DNA of 64,000 bases from Octopus vulgaris (lineage: Eukaryota): contig OX597826.1 in NCBI GenBank assembly GCA_951406725.2, positions 24,800,001-24,864,000 of the forward strand, given 5' to 3'. The first letter of the stretch is position 1. Every line of letters begins with the position of its first letter. The position numbers and the translations under genes are program-made. Shown in pieces: positions 23,418-60,705 of the stretch. The notes beneath the pieces were generated by a model that made no database searches, was not told the DNA's origin, and worked only from the letters and a program-made list of their open reading frames with translations.

Positions 23418-23647
23418 AAGAATCGACTTTTGTTCAGCACTGATACTTTATCGCTCTCCAAAAAGATAATCCTCGACGGGATTCGAGAATTCGAGAATTC
23501 ACAACGACCTCGAACTCACAAGAGTAAACAAGAGAGACAGAGACGGGCAAAATTAAGGAAAATGCCACTTGTATTTGAACACTATACAAATATTCTTTTA
23601 AAAAAACTTTTCTTTTAATTTTACTAAATTTAATTGTTTAATTGTTA

Positions 23648-23683
23648 CAGTTGAAAAAGTCTCAATGACTGAAACCGGTACTG
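23648..23683 (+). ncRNA. Type I hammerhead ribozyme, U3-A8 core variant
   Basis: cag-TTGAAAA-agtc(tcaat)gact-GAAAC-CG-GTA-ctg; all three stems pair; stem III is palindromic ACCGGT. Confidence 0.75.
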
Positions 23684-23767
23684 AAATGCTTTTTTATAAA
23701 ATTATTAGCATTTTTTATCTTGACTTTTTCCCATATATATCAACTCGTGTGTTCCTTTTCATCCGTC

Positions 23768-23835
<68 letters not shown>

Positions 23836-23856
23836 GCACGGATGCAGCACGGAATT

Positions 23857-23906
23857 TTTGTTAGTGAACAGGTCGCGGATTTTAGCGACGAAAATATTTT
23901 GACAAA
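23857..23906 (+). ncRNA. Type I hammerhead-like motif, G3-C8 core variant
   Basis: tttgtta-GTGAACA-G-gtcgc(ggatttta)gcgac-GAAAA-TA-TTT-tgacaaa; 7-bp stem I, 5-bp stem II; second copy at 34801. Confidence 0.6.
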
Positions 23907-24057
23907 TTAAACTTAAATGTTGAAGTGATTCGAACGGCTTTTGTGTGTTTCTTAAATGGCTTATAAACACCTTCCACGCTGCAATTGTTTTCGTTTCAGC
24001 ACACGATCTCAGATCAAATTACTTGCTATGCAAGTACATCTCCGTAATATATATATA

Positions 24058-34658: not shown

Positions 34659-34800
34659 TGTATGTATGTATGTATGTATGTATGTATGTTTGTATGTATA
34701 AAAACAATTGCAGCGTGGAAGGTGTTTATAAACCATTTAAAAACACACACAAAAACCGTTAGATTCACTTCAACATTTAAATTTAATTTGTCAAAATTGC

Positions 34801-34851
34801 TTTGTCAGTGAACAGGTCGCGGTCTCAAAGCGACGAAAATATGTTGAAAAA
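34801..34851 (+). ncRNA. Second G3-C8 hammerhead-like copy with degenerate 3' side
   Basis: tttgtca-GTGAACA-G-gtcgc(ggtctcaaa)gcgac-GAAAATATGT-tgaaaaa; element 34801-34975 is homologous to 23857-24047. Confidence 0.5.
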
Positions 34852-34973
34852 TTAAATTTAAATGTTGAATTGAATCTAACGGTTTTTGCGTGTGTTCTTA
34901 AATGGCTGCAATTGTTTTTGTTTTAGCACACGATCTCAAATCAGGTCACTTGCTATGCAAGTACATCTCCGTA

Positions 34974-35061
<88 letters not shown>

Positions 35062-35096: not shown

Positions 35097-35174
<78 letters not shown>

Positions 35175-35212
35175 AAAAAGGAGATGTGGAACACGAGTTG
35201 TGATATATAAAA

Positions 35213-35555
35213 AAAGGAAATGAAGAAAATGCTGACAAAATAATTTAAGTAAGGGAGAGTGTATTTAATTAGGTGAAAGTTCTTTTTACCGGTTGCGCAT
35301 TTGTTATGCTTATCAAAAGATATTTTTTTAAGAGAGATAGAGTTCCTTTCTGATAGATTTTTTTTCTCTTATATGTGTTCTCATATATATTTCTCACATA
35401 TAAGAGAAAAAATCTATCAGAAAGGAACTCTATCTCTCTTAAAAAATATCTTTTGATAAGCATAACAAATGCGCAACCGGTAAAAAGAACTTTCACCTAA
35501 TTAAATACACTCTCCCTTACTTAAATTATTTTGTCAGCATTTTCTTCATTTCCTT

Positions 35556-35556
<1 letters not shown>
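35213..35556. repeat. Fold-back palindrome (~163-bp arms, 17-nt spacer) with a degenerate U3-A8 hammerhead in each arm
   Basis: Arms 35213-35377 and 35395-35556; plus motif 35449-35488 tt-TTGATAA-gcat(aacaa)atgc-GCAAC-CG-GTA-aa. Confidence 0.9.
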
Positions 35557-43042: not shown

Positions 43043-43075
43043 TTTAACTTTTCAAGCGGAGCTCTTCGTCAGAAA
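43043..43075 (-). ncRNA. Minimal hammerhead-like motif, degenerate stem III
   Basis: Minus: ttt-CTGACGA-A-gagc(tcc)gctt-GAAAA-GTT-aaa. Confidence 0.5.
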
Positions 43076-51129: not shown

Positions 51130-51326
51130 AATTGAAATATTTTAAAAATAATCAGAAATATTTAAACAATATTTTTAAGATATAAATAATATAATAATAA
51201 TATATATACAAGATAAGGGCAAAAGAAAAATTCTAATGCCAAATATGCCGAAACAAAAAGTGTCAATAACCATTATAATTTATGTGTCTCGAAACAAACC
51301 GATAGAAATTTCTAAAAAATTCGTTA

Positions 51327-51386
51327 TTACCGTATTGGTCTAATTTCGGAGTTAATTCATAAGAATTTTCTCCTCTTCAGCGGCAA
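51327..51386 (-). ncRNA. Type I hammerhead with AUA cleavage triplet
   Basis: Minus: ttgccg-CTGAAGA-ggag...ctcc-GAAATT-agacc-AATA-cggtaa; all stems pair. Confidence 0.8.
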
Positions 51387-51644
51387 ATACGCGAGATATA
51401 AGTGAAATAGTTACTCAAAGGCGGTGCTCCAGCATGGCCGCAGTCAAATGACTGAAACAAGTACAAAAAAAAAAAAAAAAAAAAAAATACCCATGGAAAA
51501 AGCAAGCACAAAGTCCCGAGCAGACCTAAGTACCCCAAATATATCCAAAATAGAAAATCTTCGGCACATCTCGAGACACGTGTGATTCGAACTAGAATTC
51601 TCTCATTCTGTTAAAGTTTCTAGTATATATATATATATATATAT

Positions 51645-54600
51645 TCTTGTTTCAGCTCAAAGCTGCGGCCATGCTGATGCACCGCCGTTTTGTGCTACAC
51701 TGTTATTACGAAGAGCCTCCTCTAATATGTGGCACTTGGTGAAGAATGGAGTTTGATATAGCTACTCTCATTTGCACCTCTTGCCGTGAGGTAGGTTTAT
51801 CTGGGACTCTCAATAGGAAGATGTCCATCTTTGATTTAAAAACCGCTACATCTATTTTGTGCAAGTTCCTCAAACTCTTTGGGAGAATATTAAAAAGCTG
51901 TGGGCCCTTGAAACCCAGACTGTTGCAGTAGCTGGTCCTGAAGCGTGATGGCATTGCTGGGATCTTTGGCACTATGCAGTGTCGTCCCGTTCTAGCATTG
52001 GTGTAGCTCACAATGCCAAAATTTGGCACAATTCCTTCCAGGATCTTCCATACATATATTACTGCATACCTCTCCCGTCTTCTCTCCAGGGAGTAGATTC
52101 TTAGCTGTTTCAACCTTTCCCAGTAGCTGAGCTGTTGCAAAGAGACGATCTTCTTTGTGAATCTTCTCTGGATTGCTTCAAGGTCCGCTGTTAATTTCAC
52201 ACTGGTGGGTGACCATAGCTGTGAGCAGTAATACAGGCGGCTGAGGACGAATGTCCGCCAGAGGACCATCATGGTTTCCTTATCTCTGGTTCTGAATGTT
52301 CTTAGGATTTCACCCAGCCAGTCGTCTGCACTTTGTCGCCATCCTGGTAATGTGCACTTGGAAAGAGGTATCATCACTCATGTCGATATCCAGATCCCTC
52401 ACAGACTTAGGCTCTGGGATTGAAATTCCCTGTGAACCGGTGTACCCTGTAAGTTTAATATTCAGTTTTGGATGCTGGTAGCGCAGGGCCTGGAATTTTT
52501 CAGCATTAAACTGCATATTATTATCCTCAGCCCATCTGTAGATTGAGTCCAACTCCTGCTGCAGGTGTGCAACATCGCTGGGGTTCTGTATTTTCTGCGA
52601 GACTTCCGTATCGTCTGCATAGCTTGCCAGAGTGGCTATCCGGGCATTTGAGGGCAAATCTGAGAGGGCCACTATAAAAAGCAGTGGTCCCAAGACAGTA
52701 CCCTGTGGAACACCGCTCACTATTTGTGTGTTCATAGAGGTGGCTCCATTAACCACTACTGCCCGACTCCTATCTTTCAGGAAGTCATGTAACCACACTC
52801 CAAGTTTTCCAGCTATGCCGAGGTCACGCAGTTTGTGGCATATCATACCATGATCAACCTTGTCAAAAGTTTTTGCAAAATCAAGGTGGATTACGTCCAC
52901 ATTTGATTTGTAACTGCCACAACACCCAGTCATAATGTTGTAAGAGCTGGGTCAGGCAGCTCCTACTTGGTCGAAAACCATGCTGGGTATCACCTAGCAA
53001 GTTATTTTCCTCTAAGAATGCGATTAGTTTCTTTCTGACTATCCGTTCCATGACTTTGCTGATGTGTGAAGCCAGAGAGATAGGCCTATAGTTTTTGGCC
53101 TCTGCTCTACTTCCCCCTTTATGTATTGGGCATATTATTCCCTCCTTCAGCTTGCTTGGAAGTTTGCCATTTATAAGAAAGCCCTGGAAGAGAATCTTGA
53201 GGGGTTTTGCCAGGGCATGCTTACACGCTTTGAGGAGGATTGCTGGGAAACCATCTGGACCAGCAGCTGAGTTTGTGTGCACTTCATCAATGGCTAGTAG
53301 GACATCTCCTTCGCTAATGTCAATATATTCTATTGTAACCGCCTCGCTGGTTATAGGTAAGGCGGCAAAGAAGTCCACTGGTTCGTTCACTTGTCTGTGT
53401 TCCAACGGGATGGTAAAGACACTTTTGAACTGGTCATTCAGCATCTCACTGATCTTAGTTGGGCTGTCTGTGAGGGAGCCATCCTTTTGGAGGAGGGTCC
53501 TATCTTGTAGTGTACTGAGACTGTTTCTTTCGCGTAATGAAAGAAGGCTTTGGGTTTGATTTAATGTTTTTTATAACCCAGGCTTCTTTGTCTGCTTTCT
53601 CCTTCATATAGGATTGTTGCAGCCTTTTTTCGATCTCCATCAGTGTTGTTTTTAGGCGGGACGTTTCGCTACTTTTGGGATGCTGGTTGAGACGATTTGC
53701 AACCTTCATCCGTCGTCTCATGAGGATCTTCCTGTCTCTTGGAATCTTGCTCCTATTTGTTTTGGCCTTGTGCTCTGGGACATATTTCTGGCATACGGCT
53801 TGCACAGAAGACATGAAACATTTTAGTTTCACGTCAATGTCTGGTGTGGAGAGACATTCCAGTCAGTCCTCTCTGAGGATCTCTTTTTGGATCGATTTCC
53901 AATCTGCTTTGTGGAAGTTCAGATTGGAGAGATTTCGGGTGCTTCCTTTAGGCTGTATGTCTCTGGTTACTTTCGGCCCAAACATAGACAGCTCTATTAT
54001 GTTGTGATCGGAAACTAATGTCGGTGTCAGTTTCACATCATGAATGATGTCCATATTGTTCGTGAAGCAGAGATCCAGAATGTTATTCGCCCTAGTTAGT
54101 TTAAGTACAACTTGCTCCATGAATAAGGCGTTGGTGAGGTTGAGCAGGGACTCCACCTATACTTGCTTGCAATGATTCATTCCTGAGAGTATGAGTATTG
54201 ACGGTGGGGAAGTTGAAATCACCAATAAGAAATATGGTCACGTGGTGTTCCAGATTCATGAGGATTTCTTTAATTCTTGTGAGGCAATCTTCAAACTTGC
54301 CTATGTGATTTGGAGCATCCGGTGGGCAATATGTATTGCATATGACAATATTATGTTGTCTTATGTATACAATTAAAGTGTCACATACCGAATTTGAGTA
54401 TGTCATTAAGACCTGGGGTGTGAGGTCATCTCGGATGTATACAGCAACTCCACCATGGCTCCATTCCCATCTGTCTGTTCGCAGTATGGCATAGTTTGGT
54501 ATGTGTACTTCTGCGTCCTCTATATCAGGGCTGAGGTGAGTTTACACGAGTGCTATGCATAGGGCTTGATTGCATGCAGTAAGATCTCTCAGGAAAGAAA

Positions 54601-60664: not shown

Positions 60665-60705
60665 ACTTAACCGGTTTCACTCTTTGGTAAAAGATTGTCA
60701 AAAGT
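60665..60705 (-). ncRNA. Type I hammerhead, U3-A8 variant
   Basis: Minus: actt-TTGACAA-tcttt(tacc)aaaga-gt-GAAAC-CG-GTT-aagt. Confidence 0.65.

Follow-up and report, generated by a model that had tools for sequence, protein, structure and literature searches.

Hammerhead motifs and their places in the window

The window, that is, the whole stretch of 64,000 nucleotides of Octopus vulgaris DNA that was analysed, contains small type I hammerhead ribozyme (HHR) motifs with a palindromic helix III, placed in the pseudo-LTRs that form the 3' ends of Penelope-like retroelements (PLEs). The genome is 2.8 Gb in size and rich in microsatellites, and every window motif named by the initial annotation was found to be a member of a dispersed repeat family. 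The window copies are truncated, non-coding insertions. The elements and motifs are as follows.

23494..23770 (+): 5'-truncated PLE family A copy with 3' tail; ends approximate, runs to the (TA)n tract
23648..23683 (+): family A HHR motif; U3-A8 core 23651-23657
23771..23834 (no strand): (TA)n microsatellite between the A and B elements; likely a common insertion target
23835..24046 (+): 5'-truncated PLE family B copy, pseudo-LTR and tail; ends approximate
23857..23906 (+): family B HHR motif; G3-C8 core 23864-23870
34702..34975 (+): another copy of family B, its 5' arm inverted; core of G3-C8 form at 34808-34814
35170..35556 (both strands): family D element, inverted pair; U3-A8 cores at 35453 (+) (35453-35459) and 35316 (-)
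43043..43075 (-): minimal C3-G8 HHR motif of the multicopy family G; core at 43072
51327..51386 (-): C3-G8 HHR motif in a low-copy repeat; core at 51380, helix I 6 bp, longer helix III
60665..60705 (-): family C HHR motif; U3-A8 core 60701-60695, palindromic helix III

All five cores for which the initial annotation had given positions (U3-A8 at 23651, 35453 and 60695 minus, G3-C8 at 23864 and 34808) are present, and that at 35453 has an inverted second copy from 35316 (-). The C3-G8 form, which had been claimed for the window without coordinates, was located at 43072 (-) and 51380 (-).

The claim that the stems pair stood only in part. Motifs were sought with a descriptor that left positions 3 and 8 free and required at least 4 bp in helix II, at least 3 bp in helix I and a helix III loop of 2 nt. 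It matched the window twice, at 23651 and 23864, and 40 local dinucleotide shuffles gave a mean of 0.025 matches and a maximum of 1. The three other motifs failed it: the family B copy at 34808 is decayed, with G in place of U16.1 and one helix I mismatch; family D at 35453 has C at A13 and a helix I of just 2 bp before a mismatch; and family C at 60701, where pairing holds partly, starts helix II with a U10.1-U11.1 mismatch.

In the case of the family A motif, helix I has 3 bp and helix II has 4 bp, both present in the predicted fold, helix III is a 6-nt palindrome (23674-23679), and the cut is predicted after 23680 at a GUA triplet. The family B motif has a helix I of 7 bp and a helix II of 5 bp, also both in the predicted fold, an additional G following A9, an A-U palindrome as helix III, and a predicted cut after 23899 at a UUU triplet. 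The fold z-scores of single motifs were -2.5 for B, -1.0 for A, -0.7 for C, and +0.1 for D. Helices I and II are weak in families C, D, and E, the helix II of E consisting of 3-4 mostly A-U pairs. Helix III is self-complementary in families A, B, C, D, and E.

The core bases U4, G5, A6, A9, G12, A13, A14, A15.1-U16.1, and non-G17 are complete in families A, B, C, and E; the set is broken in D (A13C), in the 34808 copy, and in the related family F (C9). The 3-8 pair is Watson-Crick in each family, namely U-A in A, C, and D, G-C in B, G-C or A-U in E, and C-G in F and G; the canonical C3-G8 identity is absent from families A-E.

The initial annotation had also pointed out that the motifs at 23651 and 23864 lie ~200 nt apart on one strand; that they form a meaningful tandem was not supported. 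The calculated duplex energies of helix III, the sole basis here for predicted dimer stability, were -8.3 kcal/mol for the A homodimer and -2.0 kcal/mol for the B homodimer, versus +1.0 kcal/mol for the A-B heteroduplex. A family B motif was found within 1.5 kb of family A at 4 of 30 A loci, and the 213-nt spacing occurred at the window locus only among the A and B loci. A heterodimer or a designed tandem was therefore rejected, and because the palindromes are incompatible and the spacing does not recur, the neighbours are most likely independent insertions of A and B at one (TA)n tract.

The C3-G8 motif at 51380 is carried by a low-copy repeat of ~200 nt (window 51200-51410 (-), L246) with two matches genome-wide, and no element from which it derives was found. 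Family G comprised 11 related stretches among the loci examined, with C at position 4 in most and U in the window copy. Three overlapping frames of 213-229 codons at 51706-53570 (-) resemble the 3' portion of a LINE reverse transcriptase that has been broken up. An Rfam scan of the whole window gave no hammerhead among the 150 listed of 472 matches, nearly all of which were miRNA matches driven by microsatellites.

Penelope-like elements that carry the motifs

The copies are truncated at the 5' end, often have an inverted piece of themselves in front, carry a terminal tail whose length varies, and adjoin (TA)n. According to the accessible text of PMC8557442, 5' truncation, an inverted 5' copy, a variable 3' tail, and tandem pseudo-LTRs are features of PLEs. 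This architecture was observed in families A, B, C, D, E, and F, the last with the motif flanking its frame on both sides, and most displayed copies of A, B, C, and D terminate at (TA)n tracts.

Coding regions were found next to the motifs of several families. Family A gave 866 first-look candidates genome-wide, 40 of which were scored, and one of its longer copies (L048/L197) has a GIY-YIG frame, at a distance of 642 nt on the upstream side of the motif. In family C, one locus (L195) has the motif 53 nt upstream of the PLE frame, followed by reverse transcriptase (RT) and GIY-YIG frames. Pfam matched the C frames to RVT_1 and GIY-YIG and the A frame to GIY-YIG. At 14 of 55 family B loci, the C-terminus of the family's own endonuclease is encoded 1.0-1.4 kb upstream of the motif, in the same orientation. 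The Pfam search returned no match for the B and F frames; RT- and GIY-YIG-like motifs were recognised in them by eye, their similarity to the C endonuclease is weak (E 1e-4), and their protein relatives carry the name 'RT-domain proteins'. Family E has a GIY-YIG remnant ~250 nt upstream of the motif (L232) that is 53-61% identical to the A and C endonucleases. For family D, an upstream endonuclease match was obtained at 2 of 30 loci, so its link to a coding element is only putative.

In the endonuclease tree, which is unrooted and built without reference sequences, Neptune included, A, C, and E were split from B, F, and metagenome relatives with 100/100 support. Families A, B, C, E, and F show a Cys-rich linker between RT and endonuclease, one of the marks by which the Neptune clade of PLEs is recognised, the other being placement with reference Neptune RTs. 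Family D has the helix III palindrome and a tail motif in common with A, C, and E. Covariation had been attributed to unrelated families; this was not supported, as A, C, and E form one PLE clade and D has the features just named in common with them. The PLE context, which had been overlooked, accounts for the motifs.

Several observations concern the elements themselves. The copies of family C (L190-L196) hardly differ in sequence and are arranged as divergent inverted pairs 1.6-10 kb apart, and the coding region shows up as two overlapping frames in L190 and L195. Family F (L198, G000:C1:59392400-59398200) is very young, with an intact frame of 1,312 codons, and 150 of 150 scored matches to its endonuclease were 99-100% identical. 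In L002, L007, L016, and L030, the B core is preceded at a distance of ~25 nt by a branch-point-like word, a pyrimidine tract, and AG; many truncated copies start there, and an intron of the pseudo-LTR may have its 3' end at this place.

Pairing at positions 3 and 8 across the genome

Since loci taken from best matches are biased toward the query, counts were taken from patterns with free positions and from an evenly spaced sample. In the case of family B, with positions 3, 7, and 8 left free, 4,668 exact matches were obtained genome-wide and 0 with the control. By hand count, the first 100 of the 4,668 comprised 96 G3-C8, 2 U3-C8, 1 G3-G8, and 1 G3-U8, which bears out the proposal of a natural multicopy G3-C8 variant. 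Loop II was variable, with many forms among the first 100 listed. In contigs from four runs labelled as four organisms, no alternative letter reached 5% at position 3 or 8. The UUU triplet of this family had been called unusual, but a PLE HHR with UUU is already given for Crassostrea in Fig. S3 of PMC4209133.

The sister PLE, family F, shares 57% protein identity with B over 606 residues. Its motif has C3-G8, keeps the extra base of B, and shows two-sided changes in helix I and in helix II relative to B; it differs by C at position 9 and by a non-palindromic helix III. Helix changes that compensate each other distinguish B from F, and likewise A from a sister family of its own. Among ten metagenome relatives, three have a motif close behind the 3' end of the frame (C3-G8, U3-A8, and C3-G8), and the remaining seven gave no motif under the descriptor, several of them having little 3' flank. 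The claimed covariation of the 3-8 pair was upheld and strengthened across homologous motifs.

The even sample consisted of 40 stretches of 10 kb (400 kb), with positions 3 and 8 free. It gave 16 matches, 14 of which were Watson-Crick at 3-8, and shuffles gave 0.7 per 400 kb. All 13 matches with a 4-nt palindrome were Watson-Crick (7 C-G in one tandem array, 4 U-A, and 2 G-C). The others were one U-A with a 2-nt palindrome and two U-C without a palindrome, the class that yields 0.6 of the 0.7 shuffle matches. Wider scans of the examined loci revealed more families of the U3-A8 form, and none of the multicopy families there had a 3-8 mismatch; mismatches were single copies or confined to one locus.

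Family E, located outside the window, has both G3-C8 and A3-U8 cores.

C3:58083100-58083560 and C1:122807100-122807550: family E examples (L199-L235)

Loose genome-wide patterns were not enriched over the control (159 versus 209 for G3-C8 and 530 versus 500 for A3-U8), and family E was chosen by eye from their lists, both of which contained a repeatedly occurring motif with an identical helix II. A family E pattern with positions 3-9 free gave 115 matches and 0 with the control. By hand count, the first 100 of the 115 were 76 A-U, 16 G-C, and 8 non-Watson-Crick (three A-C and one each of G-U, U-C, A-G, U-U, and G-G). Fisher's test on the 2x2 table gave p 2e-14, a value that treats copies as independent, which they are not. 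On comparing 19 G-C with 16 A-U copies, selected by state, positions 3 and 8 were the sole fixed differences over 227 comparable columns. Seven of 296 columns separated the groups at p<0.01, positions 3 and 8 among them, for which the chance is ~5e-4 (post hoc). When these two positions were masked, the majority of the A-U copies clustered, in a poorly resolved tree, beside some G-C copies that share the linked alleles of the A-U group, and this suggests one G-C to A-U switch within the family. Family E is the strongest covariation signal found; it is a single event, spotted post hoc, in which both changes are transitions. It also offers a natural matched pair of variants for an assay.

With family E included, all four Watson-Crick 3-8 pairs occur in this genome. 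G3-C8 is present in both strongly supported PLE clades, and as the endonuclease split of A/C/E from B/F is 100/100, G3-C8 would most simply have arisen twice. The variant had been expected to be missed by canonical searches. Rfam indeed gave no hammerhead for A or B at E<=10, and at the gathering score no hammerhead for L202, L219, L121, and L198; however, the last two are C3-G8, so the swap is not the cause of the miss.

Cleavage, selection, and comparison with known hammerheads

We consider it likely, with a probability of roughly 0.7, that the type I HHR motifs at the 3' ends of several PLE families are kept as self-cutting RNAs. It is established from engineered swaps that catalysis requires a Watson-Crick pair at 3-8, not a particular base. 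According to the accessible text of PMC8495972, pairing to C3 holds G8 and a swapped pair partly rescues activity; any Watson-Crick pair may therefore be tolerated. In a PLE HHR, an engineered C3G/G8C double mutant partly restored cleavage (PMC11167929). Two motifs in a tandem PLE transcript would pair via the palindromic helix III, and the transcript would be cut after position 17, perhaps aided by the PLE protein (PMC4209133; PMC11167929). Active masters likely tolerate C-G, U-A, G-C, and A-U at 3-8, with mismatches purged; selection would act on master elements only, and we infer selection on the pair there. In assembled contigs, which are unable to show RNA ends, neither a start or end site nor a joint with good support was observed at the predicted cut, an outcome that weighs neither way. 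Against self-cutting speak the spread of families D, F, and G with altered cores, the weak single-motif folds of A, C, and D, the low duplex energy of the family B helix III, the A-U-rich helix II of family E, the single, post hoc nature of the family E switch, and the reports that PLE insertion in vitro went ahead without HHR cleavage and that RNA-seq gave no reads with ends at the cut site (PMC11167929). PLE HHRs in general are described as cleaving weakly and as being dispensable for insertion in vitro, and it has been suggested that they are mere passengers (PMC4209133, PMC11167929, PMC8557442).

A less probable explanation, and on balance an unlikely one, is that the fold is kept for a non-catalytic role, as a handle for PLE-protein binding or dimerisation or as a template-switch signal; cutting would then be dispensable and the 3-8 pair required by the fold. 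In line with this, PLE insertion in vitro was unaffected by HHR mutants and cleavage required added protein, as given in the accessible text of PMC11167929. In addition, the turning point of 5' inversions often lies no more than a few tens of bases before the motif, and family D spread despite A13C. Against a non-catalytic role, the 3-8 pair belongs to the catalytically active conformation (PMC8495972), and G12, A14, U16.1, and non-G at 17 are retained across families.

Family D gave at least 1,121 pattern matches, and position 13 in the first 100 was C in 96, U in 4, and A in 0. As A13C is fixed, family D, with its helix I of 2 bp, was rejected as support for activity, and some families, D among them, have probably lost it. 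Since D (A13C), F (C9), and most of G (C4) are multicopy, a canonical core is not required for spread. With its >1,100 copies carrying A13C, family D offers a natural experiment on whether the elements can do without cleavage.

More doubtful still is the view that the motifs are relics of ancestral PLE hammerheads, whose swaps drifted in a few masters and were then amplified without selection. Copy number does reflect amplification and not independent events, defective cores were amplified as well, and G3-C8 can become A3-U8 by two transitions via a G-U wobble. However, a Watson-Crick 3-8 pair was present in every multicopy family observed, a change from C-G to G-C takes two transversions, and positions 3 and 8 were among the few columns separating the family E groups. 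That the motifs are chance matches of a short degenerate pattern in AT-rich repeat DNA is hardly credible. Such matches would explain why the loose patterns were no commoner than controls and why Rfam reports no hammerhead, but the shuffle controls, the constant site at PLE 3' ends across families and metagenome relatives, and the compensatory helix changes speak against them, and position and covariation together largely refute this reading.

Beyond the preferred reading as self-cutting RNAs, a broader proposal can be made, which we hold only tentatively and at somewhat less than even odds: that one genome has active PLE HHRs with all four 3-8 pairs, that G3-C8 had at least two origins, and that family E records a compensatory change from G3-C8 to A3-U8 with little else altered. 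If true, these would be the first multicopy ribozyme families with natural G3-C8 and A3-U8 to be reported, and evolution itself would directly show that hammerhead cleavage is selected for in the propagation of PLEs. The 3-8 pair is specific to the active conformation, and a compensatory change at such a pair is evidence of selection on that conformation. Descriptors with C3 and G8 fixed would overlook thousands of motifs in this genome, so counts of animal hammerheads are probably too low.

HHRs in PLE pseudo-LTRs are known, including U3-A8 and a palindromic helix III (PMC4209133). The minimal, short-helix-III type I PLE HHRs of Cervera and de la Pena 2014 (PMC4209133) resemble ours in pseudo-LTR site, palindromic helix III, extra base after A9, short helix I, and common U17; their copies are mostly solo and truncated or form inverted pairs, and natural U3-A8 is shared, with ~1,300 hits in Schistosoma. 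However, the motifs in the accessible Fig. S3 have C3 or U3 only, with no G3-C8 or A3-U8, unlike families B and E, and the searchable part of the supplement has no octopus entry. Perreault et al. 2011 (PMC3088659) reported natural covariation between C3-G8 and U3-A8 and a U10.1-U11.1 mismatch as in family C, but section 8 of its accessible text names no natural G3-C8 or A3-U8, unlike families B and E. The C3G/G8C rescue of Frangieh et al. 2024 in an Anolis PLE HHR (PMC11167929) is a laboratory mutant, whereas G3-C8 is the natural state of family B in thousands of copies. In the accessible literature, G3-C8 is present as an engineered variant only (PMC3884650, PMC11167929), and full-text searches found no natural G3-C8 or A3-U8 family; Lunse 2017, Seehafer 2011, Hammann 2012, and Przybilski 2007 might list some. 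The dimeric small HHRs of Lunse, Weinberg and Breaker 2017, as described via PMC6765202, are alike in short helix III and PLE association, and cleave as dimers. PLE minimal HHRs are described without the tertiary contact between loops I and II that canonical HHRs have (PMC6155905).

Non-LTR retrozymes (PMC7229834; bioRxiv 10.64898/2026.07.22.740005) also have type I HHRs with a palindromic helix III. A retrozyme identity was rejected for families A-E, whose copies are dispersed PLE ends or inverted pairs derived from coding PLEs, in contrast to the ~350-nt tandem arrays of retrozymes. Arrays of the retrozyme type do occur in this genome, with C3-G8 (L121) and U3-A8 (L142). Tandem arrays of ~355-360 nt with type I hammerheads were observed at L121:2300-4560, L142:8600-9030, and L133:8152, and the C3-G8 and U3-A8 forms of these related families have a similar loop II.
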